Below, in pieces: positions 267 to 60,840 of a stretch of DNA of 64,000 bases. Position 1 is the first letter of the stretch, and each line of letters opens with the position of its first letter. This stretch comes from Escherichia phage I29. The position numbers and the translations under genes are program-made. The stretch is from the sequence record ON286975. The stretch is one strand, 5' to 3'. The notes beneath the pieces were generated by a model that did not search any database, was not told the origin of the DNA, and saw only the letters and a program-made list of their open reading frames with translations.

Positions 267-821
267 TTACTCCCTGCTGTCAATATCAAAACTCATTGCA
301 ATACGGTATGCCTCTTCTAATGGTAAGAGTCTCCCCCACACATCCCAACCGACATCAAGCTGCCTGCCAAACAACTGTTGTGTGGTTCCGTGAGCATGAC
401 CGAACAGTTGGACTGATCCGTGAGGCTTTCTGTTCCACTTTGCAAACTGGTAATGGCTCATACAGATCAAATTCTTGTTGTGGCGAAGCTCGTAATAATC
501 TACAACCTCATGACCGAACTCTTTCATAATTCTGACAGTCGTCCTTGTGTCATGGTTGCCACGAACAAGAATAATATGTCCGTTCAACATATTTAGAATA
601 TCTGGAAGTAAGTTGTTGATATTCTTATCATTAGTGCACGCAATATCTCCCAAGTGGAACACAGTGTCTGCAGGTGACACAACAGAGTTCCACTTGGCGA
701 TGATTCCCGCATTCATACTGTCAAGATTGTGATCATACTGAGATCTGTGTTTTTGACATGAATCAAACTCCATGACCCGCTGGTGGAGAAAGTGTGTGTC
801 GCTTGTTACAAAGTATTTCAT
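267..821 (-). CDS. calcineurin-like metallophosphoesterase (Ser/Thr phosphatase or polynucleotide 3'-phosphatase)
   Basis: Motifs SDTHF, HLGDI, RGNHD, FGHAHG; start taken at internal MKYFVTSDTH rather than the track start at 926. Confidence 0.6.
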   Translation of the reverse strand: MKYFVTSDTHFLHQRVMEFDSCQKHRSQYDHNLDSMNAGIIAKWNSVVSPADTVFHLGDIACTNDKNINNLLPDILNMLNGHIILVRGNHDTRTTVRIMKEFGHEVVDYYELRHNKNLICMSHYQFAKWNRKPHGSVQLFGHAHGTTQQLFGRQLDVGWDVWGRLLPLEEAYRIAMSFDIDSRE

Positions 822-828
822 ACATTCC

Positions 829-1239
829 TCATTTAAGTTTAATGCAGTTTTTAAGCTGGCGTTCCATACGATCCACAACCTTGTCTGGAACATCATGAAT
901 GCTTTTATTACCGTGGCGGTTTTCAACCACGATCACGGTATAACTATACCCATGACTGATTGCCATGTCAACATATTCCTGCACATGTTTTTCTTTTGTA
1001 AACGTATTACTTACCACGATACGGTCGTATCCCATACGCATCATATCTTCTACGTTATCTTTGCACCATTTTGCTGCGAGTGTTACTTTACTTGCATCCC
1101 AGTTGTAATTGCCGTCATCGTCATACCAGAACATGTCGTTCTCAAAATGTGGATACAGACCCTCTAAAGATAGCGCATTTGCCAGTGTTGATTTGCCAGA
1201 CCCTGGTAGACCACGCACGATATATAGCATTTTAGACAT
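829..1239 (-). CDS. P-loop polynucleotide kinase-like protein (Pnk kinase domain-like)
   Basis: Walker A GLPGSGKST at N-terminus, T4 Pnk-like layout; start taken at MSKMLYIV with GGAGG RBS. Confidence 0.55.
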   Translation of the reverse strand: MSKMLYIVRGLPGSGKSTLANALSLEGLYPHFENDMFWYDDDGNYNWDASKVTLAAKWCKDNVEDMMRMGYDRIVVSNTFTKEKHVQEYVDMAISHGYSYTVIVVENRHGNKSIHDVPDKVVDRMERQLKNCIKLK

Positions 1240-1267
1240 AGTGACCCTCCGTTTTAATTTCAACGGT

Positions 1268-1296
1268 AGTATACCTGACTGTTTTGTTAATTTCAA
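1268..1296 (-). promoter_or_regulatory. sigma70-like promoter for the leftward kinase/phosphatase unit
   Basis: TTGAAA-17-TATACT on the minus strand upstream of the RBS. Confidence 0.5.
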
Positions 1297-1339
1297 GTGT
1301 TGACACTAGGTTATTTGTGTGGCAGGATAGACTGACAAA

Positions 1340-2275
1340 ATGACAAATGAGGAACGTATGATGAAGTATTTTAATGCAGACGACCTAGTTGACAAAGGTC
1401 TTGTAACCAGTAGGTATTACCCAGATCTCGGGTTAAAGATCTATAAATATGCTAGAAAAGTATTTTACAACAATTTATGGCATTTGTCCCCTCGTTTACT
1501 GGAGTGCCGAGGCATTGTTGTAGGTAATGAAGGAAATGTTGTGGCATGGCCCTTCACAAAAGTGTTTAACTTGGGAGAAAACTCCACCAACCTGCCTGAC
1601 AATAAGCTTGTGACTGCGGTAGAGAAAAAGAACGGATTCCTTGGTGTGGTATCATCTCATAAAGGTGACCTATTGTTCTCAACAACCGGGTCTCTTGATT
1701 CTCCATATTGTAACCTTGCAAAGGAAACCATCCAAGAGCAATGTGGTAATTTAGATCTTATCAAGAAGGTTATGGGCAATGAAAACATGACATTCATGTT
1801 TGAAATTTGTCACCCTTCAGATCCGCATATTGTTCAAGAAGACCATGGCGCATATTTGATAGGTTGCAGATATAATGATTCTGGAATAATGCTACCAGAA
1901 GCAGCTTTAGATGGGATTGCCAAATACCTTGGTGCAAAACGTCCTCACACTGTGCGTGAAATCCCGTTCAGCTATGCAAAAGAATTAGCTGCAGAAACAA
2001 GGGGCGAAGGGTATATGATCCGTAAGCCTTACTACCCTTATGACCTGCAGCTGAAGATCAAGTCTCCATACTATTTGGCACGGAAGGCCGTAATGAGGGG
2101 TAAAGCTTGGAAGATTTGGGATGATGATATCTTTAAACGTATTGACGAAGAGTTTTATGGCATGGTAAACTTCATTCGTAGCAATTACACAGAAGATGTG
2201 TGGAACTGCCTCCTGGAGCAGGAACGCCGTGAGATACTTGATTGCTATTTTCACAACGAGGACTATATGCAATGA
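1340..2275 (+). CDS. RNA ligase, T4 Rnl1-like
   Basis: ECRGI, KVFNLGEN and nucleotidyltransferase motif I EKKNGFLG resemble T4 RNA ligase 1. Confidence 0.6.
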   Translation: MTNEERMMKYFNADDLVDKGLVTSRYYPDLGLKIYKYARKVFYNNLWHLSPRLLECRGIVVGNEGNVVAWPFTKVFNLGENSTNLPDNKLVTAVEKKNGFLGVVSSHKGDLLFSTTGSLDSPYCNLAKETIQEQCGNLDLIKKVMGNENMTFMFEICHPSDPHIVQEDHGAYLIGCRYNDSGIMLPEAALDGIAKYLGAKRPHTVREIPFSYAKELAAETRGEGYMIRKPYYPYDLQLKIKSPYYLARKAVMRGKAWKIWDDDIFKRIDEEFYGMVNFIRSNYTEDVWNCLLEQERREILDCYFHNEDYMQ

Positions 2276-2622
2276 AGAAGTTGATTGTGTGGCTAGATGA
2301 CTTGAGAGATCCGTCAAATTACGGAATCCAAGATGCTCTTTGGCTGAAGAACTCTTCTGAGTTCATGGATTTTATTAACGATAATAGAAAGCTCTACAGG
2401 CGCGTTTCTGAGTGGCATTTTGACAATGATCTAGGTGAAGTGCTTGAAGGGTACGACTGCTTCTCTGCGCTAGAGGAGAAACTTGTATTCGGAAAGCCAC
2501 CACTTATTGACAACGTGATTATTTTCGTGCATACTTCTAATCCATCGGCAGCTCGTAAATTTATGCTTGCTGCTGACTCATTCAAGAAGTTTGGAATAGA
2601 GATTAAACAAAACATCTACTGA
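2272..2622 (+). CDS. hypothetical protein
   Basis: ORF with GAGGA RBS, ATGA overlap with upstream stop. Confidence 0.4.
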   Translation: MKKLIVWLDDLRDPSNYGIQDALWLKNSSEFMDFINDNRKLYRRVSEWHFDNDLGEVLEGYDCFSALEEKLVFGKPPLIDNVIIFVHTSNPSAARKFMLAADSFKKFGIEIKQNIY

Positions 2623-2630
2623 GGACACTT

Positions 2631-3392
2631 ATGCGACGACTGATTATTATCTCCGGTGCTGGTTTGAGCGCTGAATCTGGTATTCCCACTTTCCGATCTG
2701 GTAGCACTGCAATGTGGGAGAATTTCAGCATCGATGAGGTGTGCAACATCCACACCTTTGCCAAGAACTACTATAAGGTGCATGACTTTTACAATGCACG
2801 TCGTGTAGCTCTGGGCAGTGTTGATCCTAACCTTGCACATCTTCGGATCGCTGAGTGGTATTCCCGCTGGTCTGGTCGTGTGATCAACCTTACTACCAAT
2901 GTAGATGATTTGCTGGAGCGTGCTGGTGTAAAACATGAAGATATTTTACATGTCCACGGGTATTTGCCTGAAATCACCTACGAAGATGCTGAAGGTAATG
3001 ATGTAATTAAAAATATCGGATACACGGAGGTAGATACAGGCAAGTATACCTGGGTTAAGCCCAATGTAGTGTTCTTCGGTGAGGTTGCTCCTAAGTATAC
3101 AGACATGTATGACCTGTTGACATCTCTCACAAGCAATGATATGGTGATCCTGGTAGGTTGTTCTAACACAGTTATTAATTTTAACTGGGAATTGTTTCCT
3201 GCTACTTGTAAAGGCACAAAACTGCTGATTGTAAACAAGTATGATTCGCAGAGTGCAGATGGAAGTGGCATTTCACGTAGCGACCTTTATCAATATGAGG
3301 ATCGCGGGATCCCTGTATGGTTTAACGGTGCTGTTGACGCTTTCTCTGATAAAGCATTTATTGAAACTGTAGAAAACTTTATGGAACTTTAA
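2631..3392 (+). CDS. Sir2-family NAD-dependent protein (sirtuin-like)
   Basis: GAGLSAESGIPTFRSG NAD-binding motif, HVHG catalytic His region, VVFFGE; no zinc-ribbon cysteines. Confidence 0.75.
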   Translation: MRRLIIISGAGLSAESGIPTFRSGSTAMWENFSIDEVCNIHTFAKNYYKVHDFYNARRVALGSVDPNLAHLRIAEWYSRWSGRVINLTTNVDDLLERAGVKHEDILHVHGYLPEITYEDAEGNDVIKNIGYTEVDTGKYTWVKPNVVFFGEVAPKYTDMYDLLTSLTSNDMVILVGCSNTVINFNWELFPATCKGTKLLIVNKYDSQSADGSGISRSDLYQYEDRGIPVWFNGAVDAFSDKAFIETVENFMEL

Positions 3393-3405
3393 AAGGAGAC
3401 CTTTA

Positions 3406-4119
3406 ATGCTGAATACTAAACTGATCGACAACCTGGAAAAACTGTCCCAGCCTGAAAACTACCTTTGGTCTGCCAACTGGGTGGAAAACTGGAACCGTGT
3501 GGCAGCTAAAGTGAAAAAATCATACACACCATTCGAATTACAGCTTAGCTTCATTGAGGAAGAGTTCAATGAGGTTTTGGAAGAGCTGGAGAAAGGTGAT
3601 GGTGGAGATCACCTGCTAAAAGAGGCCTGCGATCTTCACGTTGTCACAAGTTATGCAGCTTATCTTGTTAATGATAACCACGAAAAGTGGTCAAACCTGT
3701 TTGATAATCCGCGAGGTCTTAAGTTCAAGATCGGTGAGTTCTATGATACACTGATCGCTGCGAAAAACACATCCAAGCAAAGAGCGTCAGCTTACCGACT
3801 AGCGGAGTTATCAACAGCTTTGCTGTTCCAGCTTAGCGGGGATGTGTGTGGGATGATGCGGAAGGTTCTAAAATCTAATGACAGTAAGTTTGCACGGATC
3901 AACCATCTACGGCATTCACACGGTGCCAGTGCAGATATGCCTGCTGAACAACTCATCGAGTTGGAGATTAAAGATCTTGAGCGTCGTTTTGGTGGTCGCT
4001 ACGAAGGTTTCGTTGCTAAAGAGGAGTTCTACAACGGCAATAAAGTTATTATATTCCTTGACAGTAAAGGTAAGATTATGAAGCCTTCGAGCTTCAAGGA
4101 TGTAACAGAGTATATTTAA
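3406..4119 (+). CDS. MazG-like nucleotide pyrophosphohydrolase (tentative)
   Basis: Acidic helical EEEFNEVLEELEKGD motif. Confidence 0.35.
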   Translation: MLNTKLIDNLEKLSQPENYLWSANWVENWNRVAAKVKKSYTPFELQLSFIEEEFNEVLEELEKGDGGDHLLKEACDLHVVTSYAAYLVNDNHEKWSNLFDNPRGLKFKIGEFYDTLIAAKNTSKQRASAYRLAELSTALLFQLSGDVCGMMRKVLKSNDSKFARINHLRHSHGASADMPAEQLIELEIKDLERRFGGRYEGFVAKEEFYNGNKVIIFLDSKGKIMKPSSFKDVTEYI

Positions 4120-55024: not shown

Positions 55025-55087
55025 AATACATCACTCTCTGTTAGTTTATGCGTATATTATACACTGCAGTTTTCAGATGTCAACCTC

Positions 55088-55339
55088 TTACAGATTGCTC
55101 CAGTACAATCGGCATTTACATTTTGGGCAATGAGGTTCTTTTATGTAATAACCGTCAGTCTTTGGAACACTTTTTGGTGCAGTTTTAAGATTGTACCTGG
55201 TAAAACATCGGAAGCAGGTTACCTCTCCCACCTGTTGATCGTTGATCCACTCACCAGAGTAAAGTTCTTTCTTGTTTCTCATAATTCTCTCCCAAATCCT
55301 CTGCAATCTTATACCAAAATCTCCAGCCAGAAAGCACAC
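55088..55339 (-). CDS. hypothetical zinc-ribbon protein
   Basis: CFRCF...CPKCKC. Confidence 0.4.
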   Translation of the reverse strand: MCFLAGDFGIRLQRIWERIMRNKKELYSGEWINDQQVGEVTCFRCFTRYNLKTAPKSVPKTDGYYIKEPHCPKCKCRLYWSNL

Positions 55340-55533
55340 GGGAACACTTTGAGGATTGAATCTTTACTTGGCTCGGAAGTTCTTTTTCCGTATGGTAGGT
55401 AGAAATACCCTCCTGCAGATTCGAATATAGCTCCTTCGGTTGTATCTACCACAGCAAGAATTAAGATTTTAGTCTCCACAGTGCTCTCCTCTCTTAGTTG
55501 TCGTGGAAACTATATCACCTCAGAAGATGGTCG

Positions 55534-55990
55534 TCAACACTTTTTGTACTCCACCACGACAATATCTATGTCGAAAGTGGCAAGGTTAATAACGTCCTCT
55601 ACGTGTTCCCACTTCAAACCGCCTATGCCGCACCCGATCTTAGGTATGTAGAATGGTAAAGTCGATCCGCTGAATACTTCATTGACTAGCTCAAAGCCTT
55701 TCAGGATTGAGAAATACTCAGCATTAGGTCCTGGGTAGAACTGGGTATATAGATTGATTCCGTAGACAATACCTATCGGAGATAAGTGCTCCCATCGGGA
55801 GAACGCACCCAGTTTACTTAGGCAACCGTATCTAGTCTCTTTGTCGGCTGACAGTGCTTGAGGAAACTCACGGGCAATCTGTTTTGCTATACCCTTGCCC
55901 ATTGTGTGGAAGCAGTTACAACCGTGGATCAGGTGACCAGCACCGCTCTTAAAAAGGGAGATTAAATCTCCCTCTACAGTATCAATAATC
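55534..55990 (-). CDS. macro-domain protein (ADP-ribose binding/processing)
   Basis: IIDTVEGDL, HGCNCFHTMGKGIAKQI, IPKIGCGIGG follow the macro-domain pattern; GTG start assumed after upstream gene. Confidence 0.6.
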
Positions 55991-56407
55991 ACGGTAAGCC
56001 AGCTCCTCTTCCGCAATTTCAAAAAACTCAGTCCAGCACTGTGGCATATTGGAGTTACCGAAGTGGCTTTCATAGTAAAGGTTCTTACCGCTAGGAAGGT
56101 AGAAATCTGTTACCTCATAAAATCCACAATCGTCGCACTCACCTTCTTCAAACTTGGCCTTAACCTTAATACCGAGGAAGGTGAAAAGTTTATGGACATC
56201 TTCAGTTTCGAACTCCCAGGGAATGTTGTTTTCCGCATCGGTGTAGAACTGGATCAGCAGACCATTGTCCAGTTTACCAAAATACTCTGTGAAGTAACTT
56301 CCTTCCCAGAAATCTTTATGACAAATAATATCCATGCGTTTGCCCATAATAATGGTGTGAGCGTTTTGGGCATCGTCACGAATCAGTTTTGGCATTTCAT
56401 AGATCAT
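55982..56407 (-). CDS. hypothetical protein
   Basis: ORF in arm orientation. Confidence 0.4.
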   Translation of the reverse strand: MIYEMPKLIRDDAQNAHTIIMGKRMDIICHKDFWEGSYFTEYFGKLDNGLLIQFYTDAENNIPWEFETEDVHKLFTFLGIKVKAKFEEGECDDCGFYEVTDFYLPSGKNLYYESHFGNSNMPQCWTEFFEIAEEELAYRDY

Positions 56408-56475: not shown

Positions 56476-56673
56476 TTACACAGGAATTGCTTCAAACAGG
56501 CCGTTATCTATACCGTCCTTCAGATAGAGATTATATTCTATGTCGGTATCTGTGTAAAGGGCAGCATCCAGCATTCTATCTGTGAGTCCATCCATTGGGT
56601 GGAGAAACCACCACCCACGCCAGTCAAAGTAACAGCCTGGTGCATCTTCTCTTACACGGATTCGATAAATCAT
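56476..56673 (-). CDS. hypothetical protein
   Basis: ORF in arm orientation. Confidence 0.35.
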   Translation of the reverse strand: MIYRIRVREDAPGCYFDWRGWWFLHPMDGLTDRMLDAALYTDTDIEYNLYLKDGIDNGLFEAIPV

Positions 56674-56769
56674 GGGCAGTGGCCTCCTGTTAGTTATACA
56701 TCCCAGTTTTCTTCGTTCATCACGTCCTCCCGTTCTATGAAGTTATAATTGCACACCTTTCAATCTGTG

Positions 56770-57186
56770 TCAACAGAAAACTTCAACAAATTCTTCCACA
56801 GTTTTAATGTCGTGGGAAAAAGGTTTACGGCTATAACGGGCAATAGCACTATCAACCACCGCCCGGTACTCCAAATCTTCAGAATATTTCATGAAGCATT
56901 GTAGCGTCTCTGGACAGATAGCTAAATAGCTCCACCACCCCTCTTCAGATTGGTAGTCGAATCCCATACTCTCCAACCATGAAGCATATACGCCTGCACC
57001 CTCAAGCCAGTGAGTATTTTCATCCAGAAACTTGTTAATAGACATGTGAGCTTCTAAGCATTTATCCAGCTCCTTTCCGTTAACCAGCCACGCACTGACC
57101 GTGGCGCATCCAAGGTCTACAGATTGAGTTGACAGGTTGTATTGGTCATAGTTCTCAGGCTTAACAATGATATCTTCTAATGTCAT
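56770..57186 (-). CDS. hypothetical protein
   Basis: ORF in arm orientation. Confidence 0.4.
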   Translation of the reverse strand: MTLEDIIVKPENYDQYNLSTQSVDLGCATVSAWLVNGKELDKCLEAHMSINKFLDENTHWLEGAGVYASWLESMGFDYQSEEGWWSYLAICPETLQCFMKYSEDLEYRAVVDSAIARYSRKPFSHDIKTVEEFVEVFC

Positions 57187-57248
57187 TTTTCAGATCTCCT
57201 TATACAAAAATGCCCCACCCTTTCGGGCAGGGCTATGTCAGTTAGGTG

Positions 57249-57871
57249 CTAAAAGTATTCATAGAGGTATCCATCGGGAGCTGGAATTTTTTCATGAATG
57301 TAGTAATCAACACATATTCCGGTTTCTCTTCTACAAGAATTGTGGGATACCCATTCTTTAAGAACGTTGCCATTCATGTCCAGCCTCCTTACATTTTTAC
57401 ACCGTCTACCGCTGGTGCTTCTATGCAACAGAATATCCTCCGTCTGCTTGTCTTTATTTTCTCCCCAGGTCGTTAAACGGATATTATCAAAAGAGTACCC
57501 TTTGAAATCATCTATCCTATCACAAGAAGGCTTTTTCCTTTTGTCGTATCCGCTGGCTACCCACTGATCATACAACTCTTTGTAACCGTTCAGGTATAGC
57601 CACTCCTTAAACTCCTTTTTGGTGTAAGTAGGAGGCGGGTGACCTCTCTTCTTACTGTTGCACTTTTGAGTCTTGTACAACACGCGGATAACACCTTTTT
57701 CTGAAGAGTCGTGGGAAAATTGGTCAGCCTCCCTGCTGGCCTTCTTACAACACTCTTTGCACTTATTAAGATGACCGTCAGACATCTTTGGGTGTTTGTA
57801 GAACTCGGAGAGGTTTTTCACCTCTCCGCACTTGATGCACCTCTTACAATGCGTGGATTCTACTTTTGCCA
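57249..57871 (-). CDS. zinc-finger/HNH-like homing endonuclease candidate
   Basis: CKRCIKCGE...HLNKCKECC near N-terminus, basic; start at MAKVESTHC assumed; overlaps 3' end of upstream gene. Confidence 0.35.
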
Positions 57872-59115
57872 TATTGCAAACCCACCGGAGCGAAAGGTAT
57901 GTCATCACAGAAGTCATACTGTGCTGGATTCTGATCCATTGGGTCATCTTCCTCATCATTTACAGGAGGAGCGTCTACAGTGTTTTGCTGTGGAGCTGCT
58001 TCCTGTTTGGCAGCCTGGGGTTCTTGATAGTCAGTTGACCCAGCACCGTTCTTGATCCAATCGTACAACGGCTCAGCCAGATTAGTCAAGACATCTTTTG
58101 CTTCTGCAGTAATTGCCGCTGCAAAATCATCAACTTTCGTTTTCTTGTCAATACGGCGACAAGCGTTCAACACCGCATTGCCGACACTGGCACCTACTTC
58201 ATCTTCAGTTCGGTTGGTGGCTTGAGCATACTCTTTCTTAAGCTCAATGGTGACTACGTGCAGTGTTTTAGCCACGCCTAGTGGGTCGTCCACCTTAAAC
58301 CCGCGATCCAGGATGATCTGCAACGCATTGATGCTATGTCCCGTCTCCACACCGATAGGGTCGTAAGAGGATTTACGCTTGCCACCAGAGCCTTGAGTGC
58401 CGTTCTCTGCCTTAGGAGGATAGGCCTTGAAACCACTGATAATGTTTCCGGTGTCTTTGTCAACAATGGCTGCAACACGACCACCTACCACCAGGTCTTT
58501 AAGCTGCTCATCAGTGACAACCATAGCACCTTCGCCAATCTTGTGGTCATTAACAGTAACCACGTTGCCAACAATCTGAGTCACATCACCATAGATGCGT
58601 AAAACGTCTTGATTGGCATTCTGCTGAGGTTTCTGCTTCTGGCCTTGTGATTGTGCACCTTGTTGCTGTTTTTGCTGCTGAGTCGCTGCTGGAGCCTCTC
58701 CTGCACCCAGCTTAACCATCTTAGCCAGTGAGCCTTTGTAATAGGTCTTACCGTTATGCTCGTTTGCCTTCAAAGGGATATTTACGATCCATCCTGGCGT
58801 TACGGTTTCCCACTTGTCATCAATCTTAACAGAGACAGAGTCTTGATGACCCGGTTTAAGCAGTTTATCACCCATGCTGATCCAGACTTCTTCACCACCT
58901 TGAAGCAGGTTATCAGAGGAATCCAGTTCAGAAATCAGTAAAGAGATGGTGTGGCTGGATTCAATTTTCTTACCTTGCCACACAGTGGTTTTAATACCTG
59001 TTGTAGGATCAGCACCTTTGATAGGCTTGATGCTGACACGTTTAATCATGCCGTGAGCCAGTAAAACAGTTTCACGCGGATTCATCGGGTTAGCGAATTG
59101 TTGAATAACGCTCAT
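57844..59115 (-). CDS. putative DNA-binding protein with Q-rich linker and SSB-like acidic C-terminal region
   Basis: Gln-rich linker and acidic DEEDDP...DFCDDIPF segment resembling an SSB tail, but followed by 15 more residues. Confidence 0.3.
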
Positions 59116-60511: not shown

Positions 60512-60840
60512 GCTTCCTCGTCGTCTAAGTAATCATCAAGAGAGGTGAAGATTTCACCGAAGTATTCTAAGATTTCTAGCTCACGTGTGGTGCAGAAAAC
60601 ACAGTCACCGTTGTCATCCTCGATAACGGCCTTTTTACCCAGCACATCTACTTCAAGTTTATCGTTCAACAGGACAGCTCCTGTGTAAACTTTGTCGGCT
60701 GTACAGTCCCGAAAAGCAGAATCCTTCTCCAGATAGTCTGGCTTAACCTTGGCTTTAATTCGTTGATATTGTTTAGTCATTGCTGTGGTCCCCTTTCGTT
60801 TTGATAGGGCCATTATATTAGGCCCCATCACTGTTGTCAA
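60508..60840 (-). CDS. hypothetical protein
   Basis: ATGA-coupled ORF. Confidence 0.4.
   Translation of the reverse strand: MTTVMGPNIMALSKRKGTTAMTKQYQRIKAKVKPDYLEKDSAFRDCTADKVYTGAVLLNDKLEVDVLGKKAVIEDDNGDCVFCTTRELEILEYFGEIFTSLDDYLDDEEA

Follow-up and report, generated by a model that had tools for sequence, protein, structure and literature searches.

A Gln-type macrodomain protein of the rV5-like Escherichia phage I29 belongs to the T4 Tk.4 family and may counter DarT2

Introduction

Why would a large virulent coliphage carry a macrodomain of its own, and on which ADP-ribose derivative would it act? The question is raised by a small gene on the minus strand of Escherichia phage I29 (sequence record ON286975), of which we analyzed one stretch of 64,000 nucleotides, hereafter the window. 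The window belongs to a Vequintavirus (rV5-like myovirus): the 3-kb stretch around the gene is 99.9% identical to Shigella phage CM1 and shares 90-98% identity with more than 100 Escherichia phages of this genus. An earlier note, made from the letters of the sequence, had recognized macro-domain motifs at positions 55534-55990 and had proposed that the product reverses ADP-ribosylation imposed by host defence or toxin systems, within a replication-gene operon and together with a Sir2-like protein. The macro-domain label itself was already known, since related GenBank records name the gene 'macro domain-containing protein' or 'Macro domain, Poa1p_like family, T4 GC 1557'.

Results

The protein is a free-standing macrodomain of the phage Tk.4 family

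The gene (55534..55992, minus strand) encodes 152 residues, and the motifs quoted in the earlier note are literally present in them: G8-D9, then the segment from H23 to A36 (HGCNCFHTMGKGIA, residues 23-36) and IPKIGCGIGG (residues 116-125). The macro-domain identity was borne out by a Pfam match, a family profile searched against the Protein Data Bank (PDB), an AlphaFold2 model and Foldseek. Pfam Macro (PF01661) scored 28 bits against a cut-off of 22, with an aligned part covering only residues 22-52, and PHROG 335 ('phosphatase') matched over the whole length at 2e-59. A single-sequence search of the PDB gave the Mycobacterium tuberculosis DarG macrodomain (5m3i, 1e-6) as its best match, together with Poa1p, BT1257, SCO6735 and TARG1, and the profile built from 55 family members matched seven macrodomain groups over their full length (5.5e-16 to 1e-10). 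The AlphaFold2 model, built on the family alignment, reached a predicted local distance difference test (pLDDT) score of 97.0 and a predicted template modelling (pTM) score of 0.91. Foldseek returned 164 PDB matches at E <= 0.001, and among the 50 listed almost all were macrodomains or macrodomain-based designs. TARG1 came first (template modelling score, TM, 0.78), followed by Poa1p, the DarG proteins of T. aquaticus and M. tuberculosis, T. africanus DarTG, BT1257 and SCO6735, each with probability 1.00. The protein is a free-standing, single-domain macrodomain of the TARG1/DarG/Poa1p ('ALC1-like') class and a member of the phage Tk.4 family.

This family is widespread. Homologs were found by tblastn in 2771 of 50,697 phage records, 2486 of them with at least 80% query coverage, and the T-even tk.4 genes are included. 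Within the window, the only match to the family hidden Markov model (HMM) is the macro coding sequence (CDS) itself, at 3e-63. In Felixounavirus OPT-SAL01 (L015:2995-3780) the macro domain forms the N-terminal ~160 residues of an annotated 261-residue protein, with an extension of ~100 residues of unknown function. In a Pseudomonadota metagenome-assembled genome (L021:5528-7223) a 42%-identical homolog stands in a cellular-looking housekeeping context and is directly followed by an Exo_endo_phos (EEP) gene, with no DarT nearby.

The active site carries glutamine in place of the catalytic lysine

Residues G24, N26, G34, A36, N80, Q84, P117, I119, G120 and G125 are invariant among the 55 family members, and H23, C27, M31, D50, Y82, T83, G88 and G122 are nearly so. 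The two glycine-rich loops, G32-K-G-I-A36 and G120-C-G-I-G-G125, are conserved across the family and are predicted to bind ADP-ribose. The column of Q84 holds the catalytic lysine of DarG (K80), TARG1 (K84) and phiKZ gp104, and a glutamine (Gln85) in SCO6735 and BT1257, where the motif N-x-x-x-Q reads NMIGQH, as compared with NLYTQF in the phage family. H23, N26, N80 and Q84 align with the H.CN and NMIGQ motifs of these two proteins, which makes the phage protein a Gln-type macrodomain. The TARG1 dyad is not present, as its second catalytic residue, D125, corresponds to G124.

In SCO6735 this glutamine is essential, since the substitutions Q85A and Q85E abolish hydrolysis of thymidine-linked ADP-ribose (ADPr) on DNA. 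Both E. coli and Streptomyces can be rescued from DarT by wild-type SCO6735, for which catalysis mediated by a water molecule has been proposed (PMC9411070). Thymidine-ADPr hydrolysis is common to DarG, TARG1, SCO6735 and fly Targ1/3 (PMC12879935).

The closest characterized relative is T4 Tk.4 (AdfM)

By BLASTP, T4 Tk.4 is 39% identical to the macro protein over residues 1-150 (E 3e-41). In T4, tk.4 was the single hit of a transposon screen on DarTG2, and a clean knockout sensitizes the phage to this toxin-antitoxin defence; the gene was named adfM, for anti-DarT factor, macrodomain (bioRxiv 10.1101/2025.11.20.689424). A still closer protein, 70% identical, occupies the tk.4 slot between vs and tk in Krischvirus GEC-3S. 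In a neighbour-joining tree the macro protein groups with its JeffSchatz and GEC-3S homologs at 96-100% bootstrap (GEC-3S 96%) and then with Tk.4 of T4 and UFV-AREG1 at 56%; the proteins linked to the NAD+ salvage system NARP1 are placed elsewhere, and support is confined to shallow nodes, the deep ones having 0-21%.

Identity with the DarG2 antitoxin itself is ruled out by score, by Gln84 in the catalytic lysine column and by the single-domain architecture. The NCBIfam DarG model (NF048014) gave 46.8 bits against a cut-off of 250, matching positions 3-141 of 338, and the PADLOC model (PDLC02990) gave 48 bits, on the macro part only, as opposed to 133 bits for phiKZ gp104. The macro protein has no C-terminal DarT-binding domain, and no adjacent darT was found, the neighbours being small phage open reading frames (ORFs). 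The name AdfM has also been given, independently, to the chimallivirus protein phiKZ gp104 (PMC13309987). Judged by its active-site residues, T4-type AdfM is a Gln-type protein like SCO6735 and would be mechanistically distinct from its chimallivirus namesake.

The same family includes a NARP1-associated phosphatase

A second characterized relative comes from Vibrio phage Gary, in which the macrodomain Adpp is encoded between Adps and Namat and dephosphorylates ADP-ribose-1''-phosphate (ADPR-1''-phosphate) in vitro (bioRxiv 10.64898/2026.01.28.702374). NARP1 can thereby restore NAD+ once the RES-domain defence aRES, which was taken from E. coli UC5, has attacked, and Adpp is required for the Adps-Adpp-Namat operon to overcome aRES (bioRxiv 10.64898/2026.01.28.702374). 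On the alignment, T4 AdfM and Adpp are one family with the same active-site residues.

We looked for the partners of Adpp in the rV5-type genome. Using Gary Adps, Gary Namat and PA10 Namat as tblastn queries, nothing better than E 0.76 was found in the window or in the complete, 98%-identical genome of rV5_ev168, while positive controls worked; neither gene is annotated in rV5-type records. Membership of the macro gene in a NARP1-AP system is ruled out, as neither Adps nor Namat was found. Among the Vibrio Demerecviridae, Ceto, Gary and most of ~60 related records have a NARP1-linked copy of the family, as does Pseudomonas Pakpunavirus PA10. The NARP1-AP layout, with a PRPS-like Adps, a NAMPT-like Namat and a macro homolog inside or beside it, was seen at three of the homolog loci that we collected (L008:3135-6149, L014:1629-4659 and L016:1-3480).

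An AdfM-like role against DarT2 is the favoured function

We consider an AdfM-like role, the removal of DarT2-placed ADP-ribose from phage DNA, to be the most likely function of the macro protein, a judgement that we hold with moderate confidence. It is favoured because the protein shares more identity with the Tk.4 group (39-70%) than with Adpp (34.5%) and because this type of phage lacks NARP1; conversely, a NARP1-linked role is disfavoured since the partners Adps and Namat are absent from it. The general proposal that the protein reverses ADP-ribosylation by defence or toxin systems fits what is known of T4 Tk.4/AdfM, which is needed against DarTG2, and stands at that level of likelihood. 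Phage T5, which is sensitive to DarTG2, contains no member of the family by tblastn or by the family HMM. The macro gene lies in a promoter-rich leftward arm that also holds the helicase-primase and DNA polymerase genes, and one distant homolog directly follows the primase gene in the replication module of another phage.

From these comparisons we infer the catalytic activity, substrate and timing of the protein as follows. It would probably be made early, from host-type promoters in the arm shared with replication genes. The two glycine-rich loops, GKGIA and GCGIGG, would hold the ADP-ribose moiety, while H23, N26, N80 and the invariant Q84 would position the distal ribose and a water molecule, after which the bond at C1'' of the distal ribose would be cleaved. 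The likeliest substrate would be ADP-ribose placed by host DarT2 on thymidine of single-stranded phage DNA, and its removal would restore replication and packaging. The macro protein would then be an enzymatic stand-in for the DarG2 antitoxin, as T4 AdfM would be, working without the DarT-binding domain of DarG.

Several observations weigh against this assignment. The evidence from T4 is genetic only and comes from a preprint, and the DNA activity of Gln-type phage members is predicted. Adpp has a competing activity with the same active-site residues, and no residue among H23, N26, T30, K33, N80, Q84, G124 and G125 separates AdfM-type from Adpp-type proteins. The phylogeny is weak, with unsupported deep nodes and a link to T4 Tk.4 at only 56% bootstrap. 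Features expected for DNA binding are missing: the isoelectric point (pI) is 5.9, there is no long lysine-bearing loop, and K33, which corresponds to K34 of SCO6735, is not conserved in the family. Several distant homologs have as neighbours, instead of replication genes, those for RNA ligase, kinase, Thg1, NADAR or RtcB, or for NAMPT and Nudix proteins. Finally, we found no report in the literature on whether DarTG2 restricts Vequintavirinae.

A different kind of eraser, NADAR, is carried by phages Bas60-62 and acts there against DarTG1. A tblastn search of the phage with one metagenomic phage NADAR query, which is of low sensitivity, gave no match to an AdfN-like NADAR gene. In a 59.6-kb metagenomic phage contig (L023:1390-5737), a macro homolog of 45% identity is flanked to one side by an Rnl2 RNA ligase and a Thg1-like gene and to the other by a NADAR gene, so that both known kinds of DNA-ADPr eraser are found in one cluster with tRNA-repair genes.

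Alternative functions and the Sir2 gene

A second reading, which we regard as possible yet rather unlikely, is that the main job of the protein is that of a Poa1p- or Adpp-like ADPR-1''-phosphate phosphatase, acting on a small molecule and not on DNA. Its substrate could arise from NAD-dependent RNA repair by the phage, in which a KptA/Tpt1-like Sir2 protein would act and cREC would open the cyclic phosphate of ADP-ribose (ADPr>P) to ADPR-1''-P, or from RES-type NAD+ phosphorolysis by the host, as with aRES. In favour of it, Gary Adpp turns ADPR-1P into ADPR in vitro, family members sit in or beside NARP1 in Vibrio Demerecviridae and Pakpunavirus PA10, and H23 and T30 align with H23 and S30 of Poa1p, the residues mutated in PDB entries 6lfs and 6lft. 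The labels 'Poa1p_like' and 'phosphatase' in GenBank and PHROG point the same way, as does the proximity of distant homologs to RNA ligase, Thg1, NADAR, RtcB or NAMPT genes. However, with no Adps or Namat in the window or in rV5_ev168 the phage could not rebuild ADPR into NAD+, and the greater identity of the macro protein with the Tk.4 group than with Adpp also counts against a phosphatase.

The phage does encode the machinery that might supply such a substrate. An RNA-repair-like cluster at 267..4119 comprises a metallophosphoesterase (267..926, minus strand), an AAA_33 kinase (829..1296, minus strand), an Rnl1-like RNA ligase (1340..2275), a cREC 'cyclic-phosphate processing receiver' protein (2242..2622), the Sir2 gene (2631..3392, plus strand; Pfam SIR2, 7e-28) and an ORF of 237 residues with no Pfam match (3406..4119). 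It matches the sirtuin neighbourhood described for 'Escherichia phage V5', a cluster predicted to carry out NAD-dependent RNA repair with a KptA-like sirtuin and thereby to make ADPr>P (Iyer et al. 2022, PMC9503650). A route in trans, from Sir2 through ADPr>P and cREC to ADPR-1''-P and the macro protein, is conceivable. Yet a KptA-like action of the sirtuin is no more than a prediction, the macro gene lies 52 kb from the cluster on the other strand, and the distribution in other phages does not favour the phosphatase: T5 has a Sir2 protein without a macro gene, and T4 has a macro gene with a tk.4 phenotype on DarTG2.

These data also bear on the proposed pairing of the macro and Sir2 proteins in an NAD/ADP-ribose-centred host interaction, which did not hold up: the two genes are 52 kb apart, on opposite strands, in different modules and not co-distributed. 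The sirtuin of phage V5 has been stated to be uncoupled from any adjacent Macro gene (Iyer et al. 2022, PMC9503650). Sir2 homologs were found in 1022 phage records (Vequintavirinae, T5-like, Seunavirus, KVP40-like and jumbo phages), and the host and genus make-up of this set differs from that of the 2771 records with the macro family. The Sir2 protein of T5, which has no macro gene, is 57% identical, and T4 carries the macro gene with no dependence on Sir2 in the tk.4 neighbourhood or in the literature. Functional coupling as first stated is ruled out by distance, strand, module and the T5 genotype. In the course of these searches, 16 to 25 GenBank records named 'Campylobacter phage' (MG0656xx, hosts C. 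jejuni) proved 95-100% identical to this Vequintavirus, one of them with a Sir2 of 100% identity; mislabelling or contamination is the probable explanation.

It is also unlikely, though worth stating, that Gln-type phage macrodomains are general 'C1''-erasers', with one site for both thymidine-ADPr on DNA (DarT2 damage) and ADPR-1''-phosphate. Were this so, the functions reported separately for T4 AdfM and for Adpp of the Vibrio phage would both belong to a single kind of enzyme, and the rV5-type enzyme would also complete the predicted branch from Sir2 (KptA-like) through cREC to ADPR-1''-P, making for a real, trans-acting connection between Sir2 and the macro protein.

We find it quite improbable that the protein takes ADP-ribose off proteins or RNA, or serves as a deacetylase of O-acetyl-ADP-ribose (OAADPr) produced by the phage Sir2, and is thus the partner of Sir2 in an NAD/ADP-ribose circuit of host takeover. 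The top structural match, TARG1/OARD1, is a protein Glu-ADPr hydrolase and OAADPr deacetylase, SCO6735 acts on proteins too (PMC9411070), and the phage genome also encodes a protein of the Sir2 family. On the other hand, the catalytic dyad of TARG1 is absent, the sirtuin clade has been noted to lack coupling to a Macro gene (Iyer et al. 2022, PMC9503650), and neither genomic linkage nor co-distribution was seen, T4 having the macro gene and T5 having Sir2 without it. No phage ADP-ribosyltransferase turned up in the window, where no search aimed at one was made. Least probable is a non-catalytic sponge for ADP-ribose or one of its derivatives, or an inhibitor of DarT by binding alone. In its favour, the canonical catalytic lysine is missing, and SCO6735, DarG and TARG1 inhibit DarT in vitro through interaction even when they are catalytically dead (PMC9411070). 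Against it, the (near) invariance of Q84, N80, N26 and H23 in a family with identities of 33-100% indicates that the catalytic centre is conserved, the glutamine equivalent to Q84 is essential for catalysis in SCO6735 (PMC9411070), and Gary Adpp, from the same family, turns over its substrate.

Gene boundaries and alleles

The AdfM-like protein favoured above is encoded by a CDS of 459 nt with a GTG start at 55992..55990 and a TGA stop at 55536..55534, within an ORF that spans 55534..56073 on the minus strand. The gene had therefore been located correctly in the earlier note, while its start had been placed 2 nt away from the first base of the real GTG. Four lines of evidence identify this GTG as the true start: from this codon every close homolog opens with MII(D/G/N)T, rV5_ev168 and JeffSchatz have the same 459-nt CDS in their annotation, the Krischvirus GEC-3S homolog has an ATG at the matching codon, and a Shine-Dalgarno-like GAGGAG (56003..56008, minus strand) can be read 10 nt 5' of the GTG, where it would lie within the 3' end of the upstream ORF. 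A version of 179 residues starting at the ATG at 56073 was rejected, since homologs begin at the 55992 codon and the additional 27 residues overlap the conserved upstream ORF.

Purifying selection acts on the gene, the ratio of nonsynonymous to synonymous substitution rates (dN/dS) being 0.105 in comparison with the 82%-identical JeffSchatz allele, and the protein is slightly acidic, as is T4 Tk.4. An apparent truncation in phage 241Ecol014PP is an annotation artefact in which an internal ATG was picked; the ORF is intact. Disrupted alleles were seen in Vequintavirus-like metagenome contigs of 13-135 kb: a fusion of the upstream ORF to the macro gene through a deletion that removes residues 1-84 (protein P0017), an in-frame internal deletion (P0019) and two frameshifts (P0037 and P0052). 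Each is a single sequence in which assembly error is possible; together they fit a dispensable accessory gene.

Transcription context and neighbouring genes

The placement of the gene in a replication-gene operon had to be weakened. The leftward early arm is indeed common to the macro gene, the polymerase and the helicase-primase, but an operon is too strong a term and a short unit of its own is probable. The DNA polymerase gene, on the same strand, ends ~6.3 kb upstream of the macro gene (polymerase 3' end near 62.3 kb, start beyond the window), and between the two are ~16 small ORFs and several sigma-70-like promoter matches, as well as a strong terminator-like hairpin. This GC-rich hairpin with its T run (57212..57233, minus strand; 9 pairs, 7 of them G-C, tail ATTTTTGTAT) separates an endonuclease VII-like gene from the macro unit.

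Just downstream of it is a sigma-70-like promoter match, a candidate start of the unit (56745..56773, minus strand; TTGACA-17-AATTAT with a TG extension, 10/12), followed by a second (56530..56558, minus strand; TTTACA-17-TATAAT, 11/12). These two matches, at 56773..56745 and 56558..56530, suggest a short transcription unit made up of ORF65, ORF141 and the macro gene. All promoter sites reported here are consensus matches only. ORF65 (56476..56673, minus strand; 65 residues, phrog_9903) is probably the first gene of the unit, and ORF141 (55982..56407, minus strand; 141 residues, unknown function, phrog_8157) is directly upstream of the macro gene. The 11-nt overlap of its stop with the macro start suggests translational coupling, and the arrangement is annotated alike in rV5_ev168 and JeffSchatz. 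As a conserved partner, ORF141 is unsupported beyond the genus Vequintavirus: it is not adjacent to the macro gene in PVP-SE1, phAPEC8 or T4. A third match (55509..55537, minus strand; 10/12, TG extension) overlaps the macro stop codon and probably serves the next small genes.

Over the region from 52 to 64 kb we counted 42 promoter-like matches, as compared with 20.9 +/- 4.8 expected from shuffles, and nearly all are on the coding (minus) strand. This excess fits early transcription by the host polymerase, of which it is no proof. Two of the promoter matches are perfect (12/12), at 60840..60812 and 55083..55056.

Among the other neighbours, a small ORF downstream of the macro gene (55088..55339, minus strand) matches Pfam Phage_zn_bind_2 at 1.6e-22 and is of unknown function. 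Upstream of the hairpin, the endonuclease VII/HNH-like ORF (57249..57959, minus strand; phrog_1035, 1.6e-41) overlaps the 3' end of an ORF of 423 residues by ~115 nt, and a shorter version of it is found in related records. The 423-residue ORF (57844..59115, minus strand; unknown function, phrog_4477) has a Gln-rich centre and a 'DFCDDIPF' near its C-terminus; this tail resembles the acidic C-terminus of bacterial single-strand DNA-binding protein (SSB), and the ORF may encode the corresponding protein of the phage.

Discussion

Implications

The new elements of this analysis are that the AdfM family is Gln-type, that it shares family and active site with Adpp, and that the rV5-type copy occurs without NARP1 and groups with Tk.4. 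Given that AdfM and Adpp are one family with the same active site, annotation by homology alone cannot tell which defence a given copy counters. Were the AdfM-like role true, rV5-like phages would carry a ready-made enzymatic counter to DarTG2. These are broad-host-range coliphages found in biocontrol and therapy collections, and DarTG2 occurs in pathogenic E. coli, so that such an enzyme would help to predict host range.

Comparison with known systems

Human TARG1/OARD1 (PDB 4j5r/4j5s) is the best structural match to the macro protein, with a TM score normalized to the query (TMq) of 0.78 and a root-mean-square deviation of 2.6 A over 152 alignment columns. Sequence identity is 24-25%, and the K84/D125 dyad is replaced by Q84/G124. 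SCO6735 (PDB 5e3b) and BT1257 (2fg1/2afc) share with the phage family the ALC1-like fold, the glutamine in place of lysine, an asparagine four residues before it and a histidine at the position of H23. The family profile matches both over the full length at ~2e-15 to 3e-15, with an identity of only 23-26%. SCO6735 has a mobile loop that is 5 residues longer than in DarG and TARG1 and bears Lys89 and Lys93, as well as a functionally important Lys34, whereas the phage family has a short QF.PGPN loop (QFYPGPN here) without lysine and, in place of Lys34, Ala or Ser in most members, the residue of the present protein being K33. Both proteins are cellular, DNA-damage-inducible and non-viral, unlike the phage protein.

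Yeast Poa1p (PDB 6lfq-6lfu), an ADPR-1''-phosphatase, shares the motif IH(S/G)CNC....G.GIA, in which H23 and S/T30 are even numbered identically, and is matched by Foldseek at E ~1e-9. Its F152 is not conserved, G124 being found in the macro protein, and it has long insertions (PDB chains of 180 residues, as compared with 152); the TM score is only 0.69-0.74. The native length of Poa1p is 177 residues, and an FTSS motif may stand in it at the position of Q84. Gary Adpp (158 residues) is 34.5% identical to the macro protein (E 4e-16) and has the same constellation of H23, N26, N80 and Q84, but differs from it in carrying Arg instead of T at position 30, Arg instead of K at 33 and Ala instead of G at 124. 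It also differs in setting, being encoded inside the Adps-Namat operon, while the rV5-type genome is without both genes.

The DarG2 macrodomain (PDB 5m3i, 5m31/5m3e and 7omu) is of the same fold class, and the proposed job would be alike, taking thymidine marks of DarT2 off single-stranded DNA. DarG2 and chimallivirus AdfM are Lys-type (FPTK), whereas the macro protein is Gln-type; phiKZ gp104, a DarG-like macrodomain, is only 20% identical to it.

The closest system is that of T4. Tk.4 and the macro protein both belong to PHROG 335, both consist of a single macro domain of ~150 residues, and their motifs HGCNCFHTMG.G.A, NLYTQF.PGPN and P.IG.GIG are identical, including the glutamine that replaces the lysine of DarG. 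The phages differ, as do the neighbourhoods: Tk.4 comes from a member of the Straboviridae and is flanked by vs and tk.3, while the macro gene comes from the Vequintavirinae and has ORF141 upstream. In both cases, however, the macrodomain is encoded by an early or accessory gene of a large virulent coliphage.

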